Notes: a model not told the origin generated them from the letters alone. Shown: positions 51,597 through 64,000, counted from the stretch's first letter. The stretch: DNA of 64,000 nucleotides from Spirochaetales bacterium (GCA_021736255.1 JAIPGG010000001.1:11506-75505), one strand, 5' to 3'. Program-made: numbers and translations.

Positions 51597-52670
51597 ATGA
51601 ATGCCGGAGCGAATTTCCTGCAGCGCCTTCTCGGGCGTCTTTCGAAGCGGAATGCAATCAAGGAATTGCGCAACAGGATTGCAGAAAAAGGGATCGAGAG
51701 CATCGATCATGAATACGTTGGAGAACTGGAATCGCGATACGGCGTTTCCTTCGATCGCGATCTTTCCGAAGAAAGGAAAGCCGTGTATAGAGATTTTCTC
51801 GATGCGTGCCTGACCGACAAATGGCTCGACAACAATGAAATCAGCGAGCTCCGCAGGCTGCGGGATCTCCTCGGGCTGACTGATCGGCAGGAACGGGAAG
51901 TGCGGGAAGCGGCAGTTACAGAGGTCTATCGGGAAACATTGAAAGAGGCGTTGGCCGATAATGAGATCAACGAAGATGAACGCCGCACCCTGCAGCTCAT
52001 GCAGGAGAACCTGGCCATTTCCGAAGAACAGGCTGCGCGTATTTACCGGCAAACGGCTACCGAGCGTCTGCAGTCTATTCTCGACAAGGCGATCTCCGAC
52101 AAAGAGCTTTCCCCGGAAGAAGACAAAGAGATGGAGCAGGTGGCACGGAATCTCGGGATAACCCTTTCCTTGTCCGACAAGACGAAAGCTGCACTCGAGC
52201 GCTACCGTCTGTACTGGCAGATCAAAAACGGCGAGCTTCCCGAGCCGGCGGTGACTTTGAATCTGTCCAAAGGGGAACACTGTCATTTCTTTGCCAATAT
52301 CAACTGGTACGAACTCCAACAGGTGACTCGGCGGACTCGCTCGGGCGGGCCGACATTTCGGCTAAAGTTGATGAAGGGAATCTATTGGCGGATGGAGAAT
52401 CTAGGGCTTCGGCGGCTCAGTGAAGATGAAATGACCCTCGTCGACAGCGGTACGGTTTATCTAACCAACACGCGTCTCTTGTTTCTTGGTTCACGGAAAA
52501 ACAGTATGATCCGGTTGAATAGCATTTTGGATTACGAGGTCTATTCGAATGGGGTTCAGCTGCAAAATAGTTCAGGAGCAAGCCCGTTTTTAGAGTTCTC
52601 GAAGAACGTGGATCTTTTTGCCCTGATTCTTGCCCGTCTGCTCCGACAGAGAAGCTATTCCAAACAATAA
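51597..52670 (+). CDS. Hypothetical protein with N-terminal TerB-like helical repeats and a C-terminal bacterial PH (bPH/GRAM-like) domain
   Basis: Repeated 'ISELRRLRDLLGLTDRQ...'/'DERRTLQLMQENLAISEEQ...'/'EEDKEMEQVARNLGITLS...' helical units. The C-terminus 'MTLVDSGTVYLTNTRLLFLG' resembles the bPH beta-strand pattern. Weak evidence. Confidence 0.3.
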   Translation: MNAGANFLQRLLGRLSKRNAIKELRNRIAEKGIESIDHEYVGELESRYGVSFDRDLSEERKAVYRDFLDACLTDKWLDNNEISELRRLRDLLGLTDRQEREVREAAVTEVYRETLKEALADNEINEDERRTLQLMQENLAISEEQAARIYRQTATERLQSILDKAISDKELSPEEDKEMEQVARNLGITLSLSDKTKAALERYRLYWQIKNGELPEPAVTLNLSKGEHCHFFANINWYELQQVTRRTRSGGPTFRLKLMKGIYWRMENLGLRRLSEDEMTLVDSGTVYLTNTRLLFLGSRKNSMIRLNSILDYEVYSNGVQLQNSSGASPFLEFSKNVDLFALILARLLRQRSYSKQ

Positions 52671-52701
52671 TCATTCGCGATTACAGCCTTTTCTTATTAT
52701 A

Positions 52702-54678
52702 ATGAAAACTATGGAAAATGTTTTTTCAGGAAATTCCGGGGAGGGGTGTTTTGATTATCAGCAAGCCGCAGAGGACCTGAGGGCCGAAAGCGGTGCAAAA
52801 TATGTAGTCTTCAACGAGCTCATCAGGGGCGAAAAGCTTCTTGAAACAAGGGCAATAGCAGGGGGAAGTGAACAGATTCGCAAGGCCGCCGGTTTCCTCG
52901 GGCTCGATCTTGTCGGTTCGAAATGGGAACCGGATGAACTCGTAGAGCGAGTGATCAATATGCCCAGCCTGAGTTATCTCGGAACACTTCCCGATGTAAG
53001 TATGAACCAAATTCCCGCGCCGCTGGGCCTCGCTGTGTCCCGGATGTTCGGGGTTGATGCTGTCTATGGAATGGGGCTTCAAACCGGAGGGGAAAAACTC
53101 GGGTTCTTCCTTTTTTTTCTTAAGAAGGGAGAGGAGCTCAGGAATGCTTCGCAGCTCGACCGGATCATCCGGTATATCGGCATAGCCCTCAAGGCCGTAC
53201 GGGAGAGGAACGCCCTGCCGGCGGGGGATGTGCTCGGTGACATCCGGGTGGAATCAGAGCGGGAGGAAATCGAGGAAGCTCTGGTTCCTGAAATCCTCTA
53301 CCAACTCGATGACCAATCGCGCGTTGTTTTTCTCAGCCGCGCCATAACCCGGTATGGATATCAGCCGGAAGAACTGATCGGCCGGAGTGTGTTTGAAATC
53401 ATTCATCCCGAGGACCGGGAACGAGCCCAGTGGCGGATAAACGAGCGGCGCACAGGGGAAAGACGTACCTTTCAGTTCGAACTCCGCCTGCTTCCAAAGG
53501 ACCGGGAGCCAATACGCTTTTCAGTTTACGGGTATCAGCTGGAAATCGATCCGGTAATTGTTATCGATGCCAGGGGCTTATACCGGGAAGATGAGGCCGG
53601 AAAGAAAACCTTTCAGGGAACGGTGGGGGTGGCTCGTGATATGACCCAGGTTCGGGCCCTCGAAAAGCAGCTTTCGGAGCAGAAAATCATCTCCGACACC
53701 ATAGCAGAGGCTATTCAGGAGGCAATATGGGTTGAGGAATCCGGTCCCAAGCGAATTCTGTATGTTAATAAGGCCTTCGAGAATATGTTCGGGAACTCTG
53801 AAGCCTGGCTCTCGGTCGTCCACCCGGAAGACCGGGAAAAGATGAGAAAGCGAAGCGAAGACCCTGCTTCCACAGAGGAGTTTCGGGAATACCGCATTCT
53901 CTCCGGTGATAGCGTGCGGTGGATCAGGTCCATTCTCTTTCCTGTTCGGGTTGATGCGGAGGGGACCCCCAACCGCTTCGTAGGGCTTGCTGAGGACATC
54001 ACCTCCCTCAAGGAGAGAGAAAATGAACTAAAGCAGTCCCTGGAAGTGAAGACTCTGCTGATGCGGGAGATTTATCACCGGGTAAAAAACAACCTGATGA
54101 TTATCGACAGCATCATTTCGCTCGAATTGGCTGATATGCCCGACAAAGATATGTCCGCGCGCAGCGTCCTTCAGAGCGTTCAGTCGCGGATCGCCACCAT
54201 GGGGATCATACACCAGATGCTGTTTCGCGATTCGGGGCACAGTGATGCGCGGCAGGGAGAGCTGGATATACGGGAGTATCTTGACTATTTGCTCGATTAT
54301 CTGCTGAGAAGCTTGACCGAGGACCCGGGAAGGATTCGAGTCCATTCTCAGGTCGATACGATAATGCTTGATTCTGATCAGGCGGTGCCTCTTGGGTTGA
54401 TTGTAACGGAACTGATAATAAACGCGCTGAAGTATGGTTTTCCAGAAGGACGCTCCGGGCGGCTCGAACTCCACTTTCAGGAAATCGGTGAGGAGTATCA
54501 TCTCATCGTATGGAACGATGGTCCTCAGTATGGAAAAACCGGTACGAATCAGAACGGGGTGCACTTGGGTTTTCAACTCATCGAGACCCTCACCGAGCAG
54601 CTGGACGGCAGATGCATCTTTCCCGAAGAGGGCGGGGATGCCCGGTTTGAGATAGTAATTCCTCGGCGTTCGGATTAG
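52702..54678 (+). CDS. Cytoplasmic sensor histidine kinase: GAF-like domain, two PAS domains, HisKA_2 and HATPase (HWE/HisKA_2 class)
   Basis: HisKA_2 box 'EIYHRVKNNLMIIDSIISLE'; HATPase 'ELIINALKYGFPEG', 'VWNDGPQY'; PAS regions 'SRAITRYGYQPEELIGRSVFEIIHPEDRE' and 'KAFENMFGNSEAWLSVVHPEDRE'. The listed ORF starts at 52630; I prefer Met 52702 because it avoids an overlap with the upstream gene. Confidence 0.7.
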   Translation: MKTMENVFSGNSGEGCFDYQQAAEDLRAESGAKYVVFNELIRGEKLLETRAIAGGSEQIRKAAGFLGLDLVGSKWEPDELVERVINMPSLSYLGTLPDVSMNQIPAPLGLAVSRMFGVDAVYGMGLQTGGEKLGFFLFFLKKGEELRNASQLDRIIRYIGIALKAVRERNALPAGDVLGDIRVESEREEIEEALVPEILYQLDDQSRVVFLSRAITRYGYQPEELIGRSVFEIIHPEDRERAQWRINERRTGERRTFQFELRLLPKDREPIRFSVYGYQLEIDPVIVIDARGLYREDEAGKKTFQGTVGVARDMTQVRALEKQLSEQKIISDTIAEAIQEAIWVEESGPKRILYVNKAFENMFGNSEAWLSVVHPEDREKMRKRSEDPASTEEFREYRILSGDSVRWIRSILFPVRVDAEGTPNRFVGLAEDITSLKERENELKQSLEVKTLLMREIYHRVKNNLMIIDSIISLELADMPDKDMSARSVLQSVQSRIATMGIIHQMLFRDSGHSDARQGELDIREYLDYLLDYLLRSLTEDPGRIRVHSQVDTIMLDSDQAVPLGLIVTELIINALKYGFPEGRSGRLELHFQEIGEEYHLIVWNDGPQYGKTGTNQNGVHLGFQLIETLTEQLDGRCIFPEEGGDARFEIVIPRRSD

Positions 54679-54728: not shown

Positions 54729-56900
54729 GTGATGGAAAAAAGGATCGAACAGATGGATCAGAACAAGCAAGAGGTTATTCAGCTTCCTCGCGGAGGCTAT
54801 TTGGCTCATACTCCGATAGGACCGATACAGTTCGGTTCCCCGCCGGAAACAATAAAAGATACCATGGGTACTGAGCACGGCGTTCCTCAGTATTTTGTTC
54901 TTCCGAAAAAGTTTTTCAACTGGATCAAGGGAATAAGCGTGGCCGAGGTCGAATTCCCGTTATACTACAATTTCTTTTTAAAAAAACGGAAGACTACCAT
55001 TATCTGTACCCCGGAACAGCATAAGCGGTTTATGGCGGCATTGCAGCAGGCGGTATTCGGTCCGGAAGATCTCGATCTCTTGCAGAACTACAGCTCGGAA
55101 CTCGATCCGGAGGATCTGCCTCCTATCAAGGCGGAGCTCGATTTTTTTCGTCACGGACTGCAGCTCGATGACCTGGTTGAATTCCGGTTTTTCGAAAATG
55201 ATCAGGTACTCATTGAAGATCTGAAAATCGAGCTCGAGGAAGACAAAGAGTTTCTCCTGAGCCGCCGGGGGGAGGAACTTGCCAGGGTGCCGGCTATGAT
55301 CGAGTACCACCCTACCTATGATATCGGACGCCGTTTGCCGGAACCCTACAAACCGCCTTTGTTCGGCGTAACCTGTCTGGGGCCGAGCCATGGTTTTGAT
55401 CCAACCGAAAACACTTCGGGATTTATTCTGTGGATGAACCGTCGGGGAATCATGATCGACCCACCCGTCAATACGACTGAGTGGCTGGTGGCATCGAATG
55501 TCAATCCGAAACTCATCGACAGTATTATTCTTACCCACTGTCATGCCGATCACGATGCCGGCACCTTTCAAAAGATACTCGAAGAGAGCAAGGTCGATGT
55601 CTACACGGTTCCGACTGTCATGAACAGTTTCCTCCGGAAATACAGCGCCCTTACCGGGGTTTCGCGGGAATATCTGCAGCAGCTCTTTGAATACCGGCCG
55701 GTCAGTATCGATCAACCGGCCTTTATAAACGGGGGGAAATTCACCTTTCATTTCTCTCTCCATTCGATACCCACGATCGGATTTCAGCTCGAACACGAAG
55801 GTGCATCTTTTGTCTATTCTTCGGACCACAACAATGACCCGGAGATTCACAAAAAACTCTATGACGAGGGGTTGATCTCTCAAAAACGCTACGAAGAGCT
55901 CCTCAATTTTCCATGGTATGCCGACCTGATCTATCACGAAGCCGGTATTCCCCCTCTTCATACCCCGGTAACCGTCCTCAACTCACTTCCAACAAAGATC
56001 AGGAAGAAAATAATCACCTACCATATTGCCAAAAAGGATTTTCCTAAACGCACACCGCTGCGCCTTGCCCAGTTCGGTATCGAACACACTGTTACCATGC
56101 CCGTTAAACCGCCGGACCATGAAGGTGCGTATCATATACTCGGCTTGCTCGACCATCTCGATATCTTCGAAGATATTCCCGTCCGAAAAGCCCGCGAGTT
56201 CGTCAGCATCGTAAAGGAAGAGTCGTTTCGAAAAGGATCAAGGATCATCGAAAAGGGTACGGTGGGAGACAAATTCTACATAATCAAATCCGGCAATGTA
56301 GCGGTTCTGGGAAAGGACCTCGAGCACAGAAAGATTTACGGAGCCTATGATTATTTTGGAGAGGTCGCTCTGTTGACCAGTGCTCCCCGGACTGCAGATG
56401 TGGTTGCCGAAACGGATGTTTCTCTCTACACCATTGAAAAGGAGAAATTTCTTCATTTTATCCGGAATACCGATCTCGATCACACGCTGCGCAGGCTCAC
56501 CCAGATACGGGACAGCGAAACCTGGAACATACTCTCGACCAGTCCGATTTTACGAATTTTGACGAGTACACAGAAGACTCTGCTCGAGTCGATGCTCCAC
56601 AAGCGGACAATAGACAAGCCGGGTACTCTTGTCGAAGAGGGAGCGCAGTACCGGCAGATCTATATTATCAGGGACGGCTCGGTTGAAGTCAGGGATGGTG
56701 GAGAAAAGGTAACCACGCTCGGACGGGGAGATTTTATCGGTGCAATGGGGAAAATCCACCGGAATGAACCTGCCTCGGTTAGCTTTCAGAACACAACCCC
56801 CCTGAAGGTGTATATTATGAAGAAGGAAGATGTCATTGCCTTTCTCAAAAAGAACCCGGGCCTGATTATGAAGCTGGACTATGATTATCCGGGGGCATGA
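54729..56900 (+). CDS. Three-part protein: N-terminal domain of unknown function, metallo-beta-lactamase-fold hydrolase domain, and two C-terminal cyclic-nucleotide-binding (cNMP/CAP-type) domains
   Basis: MBL signature 'IILTHCHADHDAG' (HxHxDH). cNMP-binding cores 'YFGEVALLTSAPRTADVVA' and 'GDFIGAMGKIH...' follow glycine-rich beta-roll segments ('IIEKGTVGDKFYIIKSGNV', 'LVEEGAQYRQIYIIRDGSV'). Confidence 0.7.
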   Translation: MMEKRIEQMDQNKQEVIQLPRGGYLAHTPIGPIQFGSPPETIKDTMGTEHGVPQYFVLPKKFFNWIKGISVAEVEFPLYYNFFLKKRKTTIICTPEQHKRFMAALQQAVFGPEDLDLLQNYSSELDPEDLPPIKAELDFFRHGLQLDDLVEFRFFENDQVLIEDLKIELEEDKEFLLSRRGEELARVPAMIEYHPTYDIGRRLPEPYKPPLFGVTCLGPSHGFDPTENTSGFILWMNRRGIMIDPPVNTTEWLVASNVNPKLIDSIILTHCHADHDAGTFQKILEESKVDVYTVPTVMNSFLRKYSALTGVSREYLQQLFEYRPVSIDQPAFINGGKFTFHFSLHSIPTIGFQLEHEGASFVYSSDHNNDPEIHKKLYDEGLISQKRYEELLNFPWYADLIYHEAGIPPLHTPVTVLNSLPTKIRKKIITYHIAKKDFPKRTPLRLAQFGIEHTVTMPVKPPDHEGAYHILGLLDHLDIFEDIPVRKAREFVSIVKEESFRKGSRIIEKGTVGDKFYIIKSGNVAVLGKDLEHRKIYGAYDYFGEVALLTSAPRTADVVAETDVSLYTIEKEKFLHFIRNTDLDHTLRRLTQIRDSETWNILSTSPILRILTSTQKTLLESMLHKRTIDKPGTLVEEGAQYRQIYIIRDGSVEVRDGGEKVTTLGRGDFIGAMGKIHRNEPASVSFQNTTPLKVYIMKKEDVIAFLKKNPGLIMKLDYDYPGA

Positions 56901-59173: not shown

Positions 59174-59965
59174 ATGAACCTACGTCCATTTCGAGATATA
59201 AGGGTGGGGATACGGCCGCCGAAACGTGTATGGATTCTCCTGTCTGTTGCCGCTTTCCTGTTTTTTTTCACATTGCTTCCTTTGAGTTCGACCTCGATCC
59301 GGTCGATCACCACTGTGGAGTCGGAACTTTATTCTTTTGATGACCACACCTGGGACATAGAAGAGGTCGGTATATTCAGTGTTACAGAACAGTTGAGTAT
59401 AGTCGGGAAGGTGCAGTGGTACCAAGAAACCTGGAAACAGGGGGTCAAAGGGATGGCAGGCGTCGTGTTTCCGGTTATCCCCTCCTCATACATGGAAACA
59501 TCCTATGGGCTTGCTTTTGAGGATACTGGTGATATTGTTCATCACGCCCTAGCTGATTTTTACTATGAACATCCGGCTTTTCTGGGGCTGCTCAGTGTCC
59601 GCGCCCAATTTTCCGATAACGGTCAAGTCTATATGCCTTCGGTCGGCATTAAGTGGTATACCACCGACCGCCTTTCTTTGTGGGGAAAATATACAACATC
59701 CATCGACACAGTTATTGGCTTCGACCACTCCTTCTGGGGGGAAGCGGAATATAAAATTCTGGACCCTCTTCTTCTAAAGGCAGGAGGAACAATCGGTTCA
59801 TATCATGCGGATGAATCGAGTCCTCAGGAACTGGAATATTCCTTTCTCGGCGGACTGGGATTTCTCCCAATGGAAATGATCAAATTGTCCTACCAGTTTG
59901 AATATACAATCCGGCAGCAGTATGGAATAATCAGTAATGCTCTTATTCTTGATGCGAGGTTGTAA
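59174..59965 (+). CDS. Hypothetical secreted/outer-membrane protein
   Basis: N-terminal hydrophobic segment 'VWILLSVAAFLFFFTLLPLSS', then alternating aromatic/hydrophobic beta-like strands. No family recognised. Confidence 0.35.
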   Translation: MNLRPFRDIRVGIRPPKRVWILLSVAAFLFFFTLLPLSSTSIRSITTVESELYSFDDHTWDIEEVGIFSVTEQLSIVGKVQWYQETWKQGVKGMAGVVFPVIPSSYMETSYGLAFEDTGDIVHHALADFYYEHPAFLGLLSVRAQFSDNGQVYMPSVGIKWYTTDRLSLWGKYTTSIDTVIGFDHSFWGEAEYKILDPLLLKAGGTIGSYHADESSPQELEYSFLGGLGFLPMEMIKLSYQFEYTIRQQYGIISNALILDARL

Positions 59966-60004
59966 TCTCCGAAGATTCAAATCAGAAGGACCGGGAGGCA
60001 TTGA

Positions 60005-62083
60005 GTGAATACCGCTGAAGCGGTTGAACTTTCGGAGGGAATATTTTGGGTAGGTCAGGATCAGGACCTGAACGGGCTCCATTGCAACGCCTATCTTTTA
60101 ACCGAAGGCGAGCAGGGAGTGTTGATCGATCCGGGCTCGAACCTCGACTATAAGGAAGTTCACCGCAAGACTACCGGGATTCTCCCGATCGAAAAGCTGG
60201 AATACATTATACTCCTCCACCAGGATCCGGATGTTGCATCGAGTGTCCCGCGGTTTCAGGAGGCCGGCTTTACCGGGCAGATCGCAACCCACTGGCGGAC
60301 TTCGCTCATAGCAGCGTATTATGGAATTAATCCTCCCTGGTATCTGGTAAACAAAAAAGGATATAAAATAGTATTCGGCGGCAGGGAGGAACTCGACCGC
60401 GGCGCAAACAACACCTATGGGGAAGGAGAATTGTCCGCAGGCCGCGAACTCGAAGTCATTCCCGCCCCTTACCTGCATTTTCCCGGCGCTGTCATGATTT
60501 ACGATTCCCGTTCGAGAATTCTTTTTTCCGGGGATGTTTTCGGTGCAATTTCAAAAGACTGGTCGCTTTTTGCCGATTCGAATTACACCGAAGGTATGCT
60601 CCGCTTCCACCGGGAATATGTGCCTTCGAACGATATAATAAGACCGGTGATGGAGAACTTGCTCGAGAGAAAGATCGATATGATCTGCCCTCAGCATGGA
60701 TCAATCATTTCAGATAATATTCCTGAATATATTCGTGCGCTCAGAGATCTTGAATGCGGAATATATTTGGAACCTGTAAGAAAAGCTCTTTTGGAGGATG
60801 TCGGATATACCCATCTGGTAAATAAGGTTCTCGGCGCTCTCGTCGAAAGCTATGGAGTCGCTTCTGTTCTCGAAACCTTTGCAGATACAGATGTCATGTT
60901 GGATCAGGCGACAGGTATGCTGCAGGATTATGCAGGAGATCTGGAAAATCTCTGGAATGAACTCTTTGAACAGATATACATCTTTCGAGGTATTGACTGG
61001 ATAATGCTGCTCGAGCCGTTGGTTCGTAAAATTGAACACAACTACGGCATACATAAACCTGTTATTTACCAGAATGAACTGTTTCGAACACAACAGCAGA
61101 TGAATGTTTTGCTGAAAGAAAAGCAGCGGCTCGAGGCGATCAATCAAAGCCTGAGGAACAACCTCAATTTTACCCAGGAGGCCATGACCAAGGATTCGGT
61201 CACCGGTCTGTTCAATGAGGATTTTTGTGTCCGCTTTCTGCTGAATATTTTCAATCAAGAACAATGGGATGACTTCTCGGTTCTTTTTTTCCTCATCGAT
61301 GATATGAAACAGATTAACTCTACCTATGGTGAACGCGCCGGCAATGATATCCTGGAAAGTACTGGAGCAGTTTTATTTTACCAGAAGCATGACGATGATA
61401 CCTTGTTTAGGATAAGCGGCCCCGCTTTTGCCCTGGTGACAAGTGTCCGGGATCAGGAAGATCTCCTCGGCTATGCGGAAAAATTCAGGGTAAGTATAGA
61501 GAATGACAGAGGGTTCCTCACAAAGGTTACCGTTTCGGTGGGCATTGTCCGGGTGCAGAATAGTAAATTAGCTGAACAGTCCGCTCCTGAAAGCATGGAG
61601 CAGATTTTTTCCCGGGGGAGGATGTCTCTTCGAAGCGTCCAGCGGGAAGGCGGTAACCGTGTGCTTTTCGATTCCGATATACAGGGCAGGGACGAAGACA
61701 ATGGGCGGGCAGTCATTCTGGAATTCGATCAGTTCCATGCCAGACTGATTCGTGAATCACTCGAAGCACTGTCCATCGAAACTCGAGTGTGCATGAATGG
61801 GCCGGAAGCTGTACAAACAGCACTTGAATTTCATCCGGATGTTATCGTTTCAGAACTTTTTCTATTGGAAAATGATGCCTTTAGTGTTCGTGAAGATCTT
61901 ATGGAATATACGAAGACGAAGGACATCCCCTTTATACTCATTTCTCATCAGAAAAACGAAGCCATGGTTATCCGAGCCCAGAGTCTGGGTATACTTCATT
62001 ATATAAAAAAGCCCTATATGCTCCCCGAACTCTTGGGTTTGATTACCAGTTATGTCCAGCAGGCGTTTCGGCATGAGCCTTGA
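60005..62083 (+). CDS. Multidomain signalling protein: N-terminal flavodiiron/ODP-like MBL-fold diiron domain, degenerate GGDEF domain and degenerate receiver (REC-like) domain
   Basis: GTG start with a GGGAGG RBS. N-terminal '[33 protein letters not shown]', '[13 protein letters not shown]', '[11 protein letters not shown]...[10 protein letters not shown]', 'ICPQHGSII' align with the flavodiiron-protein diiron site (HxExDH / H / D / H), with E->D and the fourth ligand H->V. The middle section is GGDEF-like with 'RISGPAF' in place of 'R-GG(D/E)EF'. The C-terminal REC-like fold has '[11 protein letters not shown]', i.e. Glu at the phospho-acceptor position. Confidence 0.65.
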
Positions 62084-64000
62084 TATCTCCTTTATTACTA
62101 ATCTATTGATTGTTTTGCTCGCGATTACGGGGGCAATGATTGGACTTCTCTTCTTTAGCAAGCATCAGTATCGCAGGCGTAACAGGAAGAAAACCAGAAT
62201 GTCCAAACTCATCATAGATGGGGTTCTCAAAGGCGGGGGAGAGACGGGTCTTTTGGACCAGCTCAAGAGAGACCGGAAACTCATGTTCAAACTGCTGAAG
62301 GAAATCGGTGATTCTGTAGAGCTTCCTGCATCGGTCAAAGCAAAGTTGGTAGAGGGACTCAGGGAGCGGAAACTTGAAAAAAGCATGATCGGTCAGCTCG
62401 ATGCAATGATGCCCTTAAAGAGGATACGGGCAGCTATGGGGCTCGGCGTTATCGGAGGAACTGCAGCTGAGGAAGCTATGTACAATCGTTTGACGAAAGA
62501 ACCGAAATGGTTTATTCGGTTGGCGCTGGTGCATTCTTTGGTCAGGCTCGAGTATACACCGGTTATTCCCGTTATCTTTTCTTTTCTTCCGGAAGCCCCT
62601 CACTGGTTCCGGGAGAAAGTCATAGCGGTACTGCCGGTTTTTGGCGAAGAGCTGGAACGTCACCTCAAGTTTATGATCGAGACCGGAGAGGGAAAAAACC
62701 GGGGCTTGCTTTTCGAACTTGCCGATCGATTTCCCTCTGCCGTTTTAAATCAATATCTTCAGGATTCGCTGAACAGTAAATATCCTGTGTTACGCCGACG
62801 TGCTGCGGCAGTTCTCGAAAAAAGTGATCCCAGTGTAATGTACGGTTCCGGATATCTGCACGACAAGGACCTGTTTGTTCGGGTGCATGCGGTAAGAAGC
62901 CTGGCTTCAAAACCCGGCGAAGCCGAGATCGATTTTCTCCTAGGAATCCTGGATTCGGATCAGGCGGAAGAGCGCCGGGCCGCACGGTATTCGCTGGGCT
63001 CGATAATTACCGCCGAGCCGAAGCATCTGGAAAAACTACTCGACAGATTTATGGATACAGGCAAAAGGCTTCTTAAGCAGGAACTTGCCCGGGTATTGGA
63101 AAGCAGGCTGGAATACATCCTCTACCGAGTCAAGACGGACCGTTACTGGACGGTCGTCGAAGTGATAAAGGTGTTGATTCAAATGCGCCGTGTGGCTGTT
63201 TTGTTCGGATTTTTTGAACGGAACCAGGATCTGAGTATAGAAAAGGAATTGATAGAGATAATTCAAGGACTGCTCGAAAAAGACCACCAAGCACAGGAAA
63301 TGTTTTCTCGATACATGCCGGAACACAACTTGAAGCAGCTCGGTCTCGAAAGAAGTCTTCCTGAAAACACTCGCGAAAAGGCTCCGATGAAAAAGCAGAA
63401 CAGGCGACTGCTCGTAGGACTGTTCGTTTTGATCCTCATATCCATGCCCCTCATCTACTTCCTGTCGATGGCTGCTGGTGGAGGTTTGTGGGATTCTTTG
63501 TTTTCCGGAAAAGAGGGAACATTTTCCCTGCTTAAGGACCTTATTCTCGGCTTCCGGGTAGAAGGATTTGTTTCCGGATTCAACTATATCTTTGCTTATT
63601 ATTCTATAGCTTTGAATTCAATCTATTTTCTTCTTTTACTGCTCGCCCTAATTCACCTTTTCAAACAGTTTCGGTACTGGGAAATAAGCAGTCTGAGGTT
63701 CTTGTTTTCCGAAGAATTATTGCCGTCGATCTCTATTCTCGCTCCTGCTTATAACGAAGAACTGAATGTTGTAGATAATGTAAAGTCTCTGCTGAACCTT
63801 CATTACCCGGATGTGGAGGTCATTGTTATCAACGATGGATCCGGAGACGGAACTCTGTCTTCTCTGATCGAAACCTTTGAGCTGGAACGGGTAGACATAG
63901 AACGTCGAAATAGTATTCCAACGGAACCGGTTCGAGGGATTTATCGGAGCAGGTCTTATTCCAATCTTACTGTTATTGACAAAGCCAACGGCGGCAAAGC
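62072..64000 (+). CDS. 3'-partial membrane glycosyltransferase: N-terminal TM anchor, HEAT/PBS-lyase-like repeat region, TM segments and a family-2 glycosyltransferase domain (PgaC/IcaA/HmsR-like processive synthase)
   Basis: An open frame from the ATG at 62072 (overlapping the upstream stop by 12 nt) runs to the window end with no stop; alternative start ATG 62198 with a GGAAG RBS. HEAT-like '[13 protein letters not shown]', '[12 protein letters not shown]'. GT2 start '[41 protein letters not shown]'. Confidence 0.65.

Follow-up and report, generated by a model that had tools for sequence, protein, structure and literature searches.

Described regulators of membrane polysaccharide synthases provide the closest points of comparison for the locus analysed here. 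PgaCD is regulated by cyclic di-GMP (c-di-GMP) at the PgaC-PgaD interface, PelD-type receptors bind this messenger at an RxxD I-site (R367/D370 in PelD), and c-di-GMP binding by BcsE, a cytoplasmic regulator of the E. coli-type cellulose synthase that carries a degenerate GGDEF domain, likewise depends on RxxD (PMC8461298). Oxygen-binding diiron proteins (ODPs) sense O2/Fe(II), according to the summary of Muok et al. 2019 given by PMC7319448, and have been recruited to signal transduction either by themselves or in fusion with signalling domains. The locus lies in a stretch of 64,000 nucleotides (nt), hereafter the window, from a Spirochaetales bacterium (GCA_021736255.1, JAIPGG010000001.1:11506-75505). 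Three of its genes, on balance, probably form a synthase-dependent exopolysaccharide (EPS) module: an outer-membrane barrel; an adaptor composed of an ODP domain, a helical linker, a degenerate GGDEF domain and a degenerate receiver (hereafter the partner); and a HEAT-fused glycosyltransferase family 2 (GT2) synthase that would be controlled through its HEAT arm. The module is a so far undescribed variant of synthase-dependent EPS systems, whose mechanism and product we infer. No curated family was found for it, and full-text literature searches returned no description of ODP-GGDEF proteins with GT2 enzymes or of HEAT-GT2 synthases. The synthase and partner genes have the following features, in window positions.

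62073..64000, plus strand: HEAT-fused GT2 polysaccharide synthase, 5' two-thirds (642 of ~950 codons), cut by the window end
62073..62165, plus strand: N-terminal transmembrane (TM) anchor, residues 1-31, then a basic cluster (hydropathy; AlphaFold2 helix 5-53 in a homologue)
62205..63362, plus strand: HEAT/PBS-lyase-like alpha-solenoid, residues ~45-430, ~385 aa (Pfam HEAT_2, alphaRep PDB matches, AlphaFold2)
63399..63668, plus strand: two TM helices, residues 443-472 and 505-532, predicted to bring the chain back to the cytoplasm before the GT domain (hydropathy, AlphaFold2)
63723..63998, plus strand: start of the GT-A/GT2 catalytic domain, residues 551-642, with ILAPAYNEE and the first Asp motif, VINDGS (Pfam, NCBIfam)
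62073..62083, plus strand: 11-nt stop/start overlap, ATGAGCCTTGA, the synthase start lying inside the last codons of the partner
60005..62083, plus strand: partner, 692 aa, cytoplasmic, with ODP diiron sensor, helical linker, degenerate GGDEF and degenerate receiver (Pfam); adjoins the synthase in 20/20 loci
60005..60790, plus strand: ODP domain, residues 1-262 (Pfam PF19583)
61181..61663, plus strand: degenerate GGDEF, residues 393-553 (Pfam, 47.8 bits; alignment to solved cyclases)
61721..62038, plus strand: degenerate receiver, residues 573-678 (Pfam Response_reg, 35.0 bits against a cutoff of 30.2)

The pairing of these two genes was examined across loci that had been collected by similarity to the synthase alone, with their open reading frames (ORFs) classified using hidden Markov models (HMMs) built in this analysis. 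Twenty-one distinct fused-gene loci, including the window, were obtained, 20 of them with upstream DNA (the window, L002, L003, L005, L006, L008-L012, L014-L020, L023, L025 and L027). A partner with the degenerate GGDEF-receiver core is encoded directly upstream, on the same strand, in all 20. The junction is an 11-nt overlap in eight loci (the window, L002, L003, L005, L010, L014, L017 and L025), a 4-nt ATGA overlap in seven and a 1-nt overlap in one; one further locus has a 1-nt gap, two have gaps of 20 or 26 nt, and the junction in L018 is unclear. The pairing spans spirochaetes and a firmicute, Heliophilum, and holds even where identity has fallen to 24-28% for the N-terminal arm and ~33-40% for the synthase as a whole. 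These gene arrangements support the dedicated, translationally coupled pair that the preliminary description of this DNA had proposed.

The ODP domain is found in at least 15 of the 20 partners, three partners being cut by contig ends. The partners of Heliophilum (L012) and L023 lack it, the former ending in a DivIVA domain instead, and the ODP of L011 has degenerate metal motifs. Because the ODP is absent or degenerate in some partners, the sensor appears to be exchangeable, and the constant unit is the linker-GGDEF-receiver core together with the HEAT-GT2 synthase. As a separate observation, L008 (5975..8004) has an ODP ORF and a degenerate GGDEF-receiver ORF that overlap by ~20 nt, with Gly at the receiver phospho-site; this split may reflect a frameshift or mean that the locus truly encodes two proteins.

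Within the partner, the ODP domain matches PF19583 at 187.9 bits against a cutoff of 27.2, and phmmer searches recover the solved ODPs 6qrq (E 3e-27) and 6qnm (E 1.8e-22). The metal motifs of the metallo-beta-lactamase fold (HQDPDV, LH, FSGD and PQHG) are identical or conserved in the alignment to both structures, and the domain looks intact and appears functional. The GGDEF domain, by contrast, has lost its signature: S471-G-P-A-F475 (bases 61415..61429) replaces GG(D/E)EF, and residue-level alignment to 5llw, 4wxo and 4zve, three of the 39 PDB cyclases matched, places SGPAF opposite GGEEF/GGDEF and HDDD opposite the RxxD I-site. The same degeneration extends to all 18 partners examined, in which the signature reads xG[PASHV]x[FYILM] and is GG[DE]EF in none, and none of which has an RxxD I-site or any conserved Arg or Asp pattern at that position. 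The Asn of the guanine-binding motif LTGLxNRR is kept in most partners, but RR and GG(D/E)EF are lost. In the receiver, Glu617 (61853..61855, within VIVSELF) replaces the phospho-acceptor Asp and the acidic pair is reduced to E-F-D, with Ser and Lys-Pro kept. Across 20 partners the phospho-site is Glu in 17, Asp in two and Gly in one, and by these residues the domain is a conserved predicted pseudo-receiver with a phosphomimetic-type residue. The degenerate GGDEF and receiver domains and the diiron domain noticed earlier from the window alone are thus borne out, and the first two are a common pattern of the partners examined.

The NCBI label of the window's partner (MCF7927506.1), 'diguanylate cyclase', is very probably wrong, judging from these motifs, and the whole partner family is likely to be misannotated alike, a systematic error that would inflate c-di-GMP gene counts. 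The dead GGDEF and receiver domains would also exemplify the reuse of such domains as adaptors. The window's ODP domain carries in addition a 19-residue insertion at ~127-145 relative to seven other aligned ODP-bearing partners.

Each of the known systems resembles the partner in part. Like PelD, it is a catalytically dead GGDEF protein whose gene neighbours the polysaccharide machine that it appears to serve exclusively. Degenerate GGDEF receptors that activate EPS machines also include Listeria PssE and B. subtilis YdaK. PelD, however, has an intact RxxD, whereas the window-type partner lacks it, is soluble, and carries a diiron sensor and a C-terminal pseudo-receiver. BcsE reportedly consists of a degenerate receiver followed by a degenerate GGDEF domain (Zouhir et al. 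2020), the reverse of the order here; it also keeps its I-site, senses c-di-GMP, acts via BcsQ/R/F instead of a HEAT arm and has no ODP. The ODPs of Treponema denticola and Thermotoga maritima (6qnm, 6qrq) are clear homologues of the sensor domain, with motifs in common, but characterised ODPs are stand-alone proteins feeding chemoreceptors, while the ODP of this module belongs to a protein with dead GGDEF and receiver domains that is linked to a polysaccharide synthase.

On the synthase side, the frame is open from the ATG at 62073-62075 through the final full codon of the window, 642 codons without a stop, in agreement with the earlier statement that the gene is truncated by the window end. 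The upstream gene (60005..62083) terminates at the TGA at 62081-62083. The overlap described previously therefore stands, with its coordinates corrected from a start at 62072 and 12 nt to a start at 62073 and 11 nt. The Shine-Dalgarno (SD) sequence before 62073 is weak (AGGCG), whereas those of the two upstream genes are strong (GGGAGG and GAAGGAGG), which fits reinitiation at the overlap. A second start with a good ribosome-binding site had been placed at 62198; the site does exist (AGGAAG, 9 nt 5' of an in-frame internal ATG, Met43), but the ATG lies at 62199, and it was ruled out as the true start: Met43 is not conserved, and the alignment with homologues starts at residue 1, taking in the TM anchor and basic cluster. 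Because this N-terminal helix and basic cluster are conserved and Met43 is not, 62073 is favoured. The gene continues for another 203 nt, and the protein to residue 710, on L001, a Logan contig of the same organism with 1 mismatch in 13,996 nt. The extension proposed earlier for recovering the full GT2 gene thus yielded the DxD motif (DSDSLL), located 20 residues past the window end, and only part of the remaining sequence.

The ORF is real, and the relatives of its N-terminal arm lie far beyond chance. Word-index protein searches gave few relatives; the productive approach was an exhaustive phmmer search whose query was the first 444 residues and which retrieved 267 cluster representatives at E <=1e-3, 80 of them at <=1e-10. 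About half of the first 100 matches are proteins of 920-1010 aa with DxD near residue 640 and QR[DEN]RW near residue 800, and many others are fragment-like. The few named members, annotated 'glycosyltransferase', come from Spirochaetia/Spirochaetales metagenome-assembled genomes (MAGs) and from Heliophilum fasciatum (WP_131919220.1). No Pfam or NCBIfam model covers the HEAT-GT2 architecture as such. The long HEAT extension, previously considered unusual in itself, is therefore a recurrent feature: the arm is the hallmark of an unnamed synthase family of ~950 aa, and it is also encoded on its own in a larger family of split systems.

The domain order outlined in the preliminary description, a TM anchor followed by a HEAT region of roughly 400 aa, further TM helices and a GT2 domain beginning at ILAPAYNEE, agrees with the predictions made here. 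Hydropathy marks three hydrophobic spans in the window protein (residues 1-31, 443-472 and 505-532). HEAT_2 matches residues 230-308 (E 1.3e-13, 51.5 bits against a cutoff of 27.7), alphaRep structures in the PDB match the HEAT region at E 3.7e-11, and Glycos_transf_2 matches residues 554-597, from ILAPAYNEE onwards (E 5.9e-10). By the positive-inside rule the HEAT arm is predicted to be cytoplasmic, and the even number of intervening TM helices would place the GT domain in the same compartment.

Full-length homologues complete the picture of the enzyme. P0001 (953 aa) is 42% identical over the 642 window residues (BLASTP) and 47% identical when aligned to the 710-residue version; a full-length ORF of 950 aa is present in L003 and is likewise recorded for a Sediminispirochaeta MAG. 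In an alignment of 34 full-length members, D571, D645xD647, E759-D760 (GED) and Q802-R-x-R-W806 (QRDRW) are invariant, as are W939 and R944 near the C-terminus. The D,D,D,QxxRW catalytic set asked about earlier is accordingly complete in full-length homologues; the organism's own sequence contributes the first Asp (VINDGS, in the window) and DxD (DSDSLL, in L001), GED and QRDRW being seen in homologues only. AlphaFold2 modelling of P0001 with the family alignment (pLDDT 88.6, pTM 0.87) gave a single TM helix, a wholly helical solenoid spanning 58-422, a pair of TM helices, then the GT-A domain and helices at the C-terminus. Most 10-residue blocks of the solenoid exceed pLDDT 85 past residue ~100, with values of 70-83 over ~41-100. 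A Foldseek search of this model against the PDB ranked hyaluronan synthases at the top (8smp, E 1.5e-10, TM-score 0.63 on target), followed by BcsA and chitin synthases (Chs1). As judged from motifs and model, the enzyme is a processive membrane GT2 synthase whose predicted fold is hyaluronan/cellulose/chitin-synthase-like. Class I hyaluronan synthases (CvHAS, XlHAS1), BcsA and chitin synthases are the closest solved folds and are single-polypeptide synthase-translocases; unlike the window family, to which they are 12-17% identical, they have neither an N-terminal HEAT solenoid nor a partner with degenerate GGDEF and receiver domains. The product may be a beta-linked homopolymer or similar. 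The C-terminal W-G-x-x-x-R (W939, R944) recalls the SWGT(R/K) of GlcNAc-using synthases and gives a weak lead towards GlcNAc-type chemistry.

The synthase had also been described as PgaC-like. Like PgaCD/IcaAD, it is a membrane GT2 enzyme in which the GT-A domain follows two TM helices and precedes several more, and it shares the motifs D, DxD and QxxRW; PgaC_IcaA (TIGR03937) is the best named NCBIfam match for its GT2 half. Membership of that equivalog was nevertheless rejected: full-length homologues score 111.1 and 111.5 bits against a cutoff of 422.3, and the truncated window protein scores 47.6 bits. PgaC lacks the ~440-aa HEAT arm, and no deacetylase or TPR-porin Pfam match was found among the neighbours scanned in L002, L003, L005, L006, L008, L009, L011 and L012, neither a PgaA porin nor a PgaB-type deacetylase being seen in the loci examined. 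As PgaD is unrecognisable by sequence, this neighbourhood test rests on PgaA/PgaB-type genes.

A metagenome scan further revealed many loci matching the GT2 half only, at 41-47% identity (L030-L093). This split version is much more abundant than the fused one and was found in soil and sediment metagenomes. In L036 (2313..7736), the split operon encodes, in order, a canonical receiver of 125 aa, a family-less single-pass protein of 384 aa, a TM-anchored HEAT protein of 364 aa (HEAT_2 E 9e-32), a GT2 enzyme of 478 aa and a TPR-YaiO outer-membrane barrel. Among the 34 split loci with at least 3.5 kb of upstream sequence, a HEAT-like ORF lies directly upstream of the GT2 gene in 26 and a receiver ORF lies within 4 kb on the same strand in 30; the phospho-acceptor Asp is kept in 37 of 41 split-group receivers. 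No specific curated family was found for any of the split-system parts. Like the window module, these operons combine a TM-anchored HEAT protein matching the N-terminal arm, a linked receiver and a GT2 enzyme matching the C-terminal half; unlike it, they keep the genes separate, have a canonical receiver without ODP or GGDEF, and have TPR-YaiO rather than a 14-strand barrel as putative exporter.

Because they are linked in the split loci, the receiver, the membrane-anchored HEAT protein and the synthase would belong together. Since these ancestral-looking systems encode a genuine single-domain receiver, a free TM-HEAT protein and a GT2 enzyme separately, the gene neighbourhoods suggest that the HEAT arm is the docking site of the receiver-like domain. 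The window's group would differ by fusion of the HEAT protein to the synthase and by conversion of the receiver into a phosphorylation-independent tail of the sensor protein. The TM-anchored HEAT arm would accordingly represent a conserved, apparently unstudied accessory of a large set of GT2 synthases that are frequent in metagenomes from soil and sediment.

The third gene of the module lies immediately upstream of the partner.

59174..59965, plus strand: 263-aa outer-membrane beta-barrel, with a signal helix, 14 strands and a C-terminal ...DARL/ADIRF beta-signal (AlphaFold2, Foldseek)

Its start is preceded by the strong SD GAAGGAGG given above. The 263-aa protein has no Pfam or NCBIfam match. 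AlphaFold2 modelling with 11 homologues gave 14 strands at pLDDT 88.5, and Foldseek matched the model to OmpG (TMq 0.65), KdgM and the PgaA barrel 4y25. Ten barrel homologues, labelled 'opacity protein-like' or short 'TonB-dependent receptor', were found; homologues end in ADIRF. In L002, L003 and L005 such a homologue immediately precedes the module; in L023 and L028 it follows the synthase gene. The barrel is a likely candidate for the outer-membrane exporter of the module.

Within the favoured three-gene module, the sensor probably switches polysaccharide production on directly. The partner would be produced in step with the synthase through translational coupling and would dock by its pseudo-receiver on the HEAT arm, which would serve as a dedicated adaptor surface. 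Binding of O2 and/or Fe(II) at the diiron site would then be relayed via the helical linker and a dimer scaffold of degenerate GGDEF domains, opening or closing the synthase; this control would operate without c-di-GMP and without phosphorylation, and the polymer would exit through the small barrel. If true, such a module would give anaerobic spirochaetes and other bacteria a direct route from oxygen/iron sensing to matrix production independently of c-di-GMP. A stricter version is held tentatively, as possible but short of probable: a second-messenger-free, phosphorylation-free switch in which the diiron O2/Fe(II) sensor is wired directly to the synthase, the fossil GGDEF and receiver domains (Asp replaced by phosphomimetic Glu) act as a mechanical adaptor only, on the HEAT arm, and the whole evolved from a widespread, likewise unstudied receiver/HEAT/GT2 system under two-component control.

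Other explanations of the same genes differ in what the partner does. It may be mainly a scaffold, assembly or localisation factor, for instance at poles or curved membranes, with an optional N-terminal sensor and no acute gating. The linker-GGDEF-receiver core is the constant part, the ODP is missing or degenerate in some loci, the Heliophilum partner has its C-terminal DivIVA domain, and the phospho-site Glu suggests a permanently 'on' receiver surface, all of which suit such a role; yet retention of the ODP in at least 15 of 20 partners, with intact motifs in the window, would be pointless without sensing, and we regard this explanation as rather unlikely. The partner might instead be a c-di-GMP receptor of the PelD, BcsE, PssE or YdaK type that gates the synthase, the ODP merely modulating it. 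Degenerate GGDEF proteins beside EPS synthases are classic c-di-GMP receptors (PMC8461298), and the GGDEF fold is clearly kept here (47.8 bits in Pfam; 39 PDB cyclase matches). However, RxxD is absent, since the window has HDDD and the 18 partners show no Arg conserved there; the guanine-binding Asn is mostly retained, but the RR and GG(D/E)EF are gone; and Pfam shows no PilZ domain on the synthase, no test having been aimed at MshEN. The PelD/PgaCD-like logic put forward in the preliminary description is unsupported because the RxxD on which PelD and BcsE depend is absent, and a c-di-GMP gate seems distinctly unlikely.

A still weaker case can be made that the pairing reflects co-expression only, the partner signalling elsewhere and the HEAT arm serving substrate channelling or another enzyme. 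HEAT repeats do bind many kinds of partner, and contact between partner and synthase is here a prediction. The adjacency in 20/20 loci despite 24-28% arm identity, the stop/start overlap in most of them, the lack of any DNA-binding or enzymatic output domain in the partner (Pfam), and the receiver-HEAT-GT2 linkage in the split family all argue against it, making it very improbable. A further question, orthogonal to regulation, is whether the GT2 product is a periplasmic or oligomeric glycan or glycolipid (NodC-like or osmoregulated-glucan-like) rather than a secreted matrix. The NodC model does match the synthase, at 41-46 bits, and the spirochaete loci lack a TPR-type porin. The C-terminal TM helices and QRDRW nevertheless fit channel-forming processive synthases, the module is accompanied by a gene for an outer-membrane barrel, and the split relatives have a TPR-YaiO barrel; a non-matrix product is thus quite improbable.

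Several points nonetheless weigh against the three-gene module as proposed. The whole case is computational, and the contact between pseudo-receiver and HEAT arm is deduced from gene neighbourhoods. The partners that lack the ODP or carry a degenerate one, including the DivIVA-bearing protein of Heliophilum, suggest an exchangeable sensor, and the degenerate GGDEF-receiver core may serve scaffolding or localisation rather than signal gating. A non-canonical nucleotide site may exist despite the loss of RxxD. Both the nature of the polymer and the part played by the barrel in its export are conjectural, and the window's copy of the synthase gene stops ~310 codons short, leaving its own intactness putative. 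Finally, two accessory proteins, X and Y, recur in non-spirochaete loci (L009 5318..7147; L021 2937..5756; L012 11100..12092; L006 945..3200, minus strand; L012 3429..5543, minus strand) and were not found in the window or the spirochaete loci. X is a single-pass protein with a ~350-aa domain; in Heliophilum it is joined to the synthase (1377 aa) as a C-terminal fusion. Y is ~600-750 aa long.

Other genes were observed around the module. A GH16-like gene of ~245 aa with an EIDFEF/EIDIEF motif separates the barrel gene from the partner gene in L003 (1131..1865) and L005 (629..1381). It is reduced to a 29-aa relic in L002 (4778..4864) and cleanly lost from the window, where a 39-nt gap is left (59966..60004). 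A related ORF in L025 (379..1017), ~2 kb upstream of the partner, matches the same GH16-like HMM at E 1e-26. The GH16 assignment is weak, being drawn from a Pfam match at E 1e-3, below the cutoff, plus the motif, with no PDB sequence match; the protein is a candidate polymer-trimming hydrolase. Homology between the barrel and GH16-like upstream genes was rejected (hhalign probability 0.3%). A link to anti-phage defence was also rejected, PADLOC having given no match. In the spirochaete relatives L002 (9894..10397, minus strand) and L003 (6813..7406, minus strand), the synthase gene is closely followed by an opposite-strand gene for a peroxiredoxin (Redoxin/AhpC-TSA), which may reflect an oxygen-stress context or mere shared synteny.

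Elsewhere in the window, 54729..56900 encodes a 723-aa protein with a metallo-beta-lactamase domain and two cyclic-nucleotide-binding domains, whose Pfam list also includes Anti-Pycsar_Apyc1. The gene adjoins one for a PAS/HisKA_2 kinase (52630..54678), and its product is possibly a cyclic-nucleotide phosphodiesterase regulated by cyclic nucleotide monophosphates.

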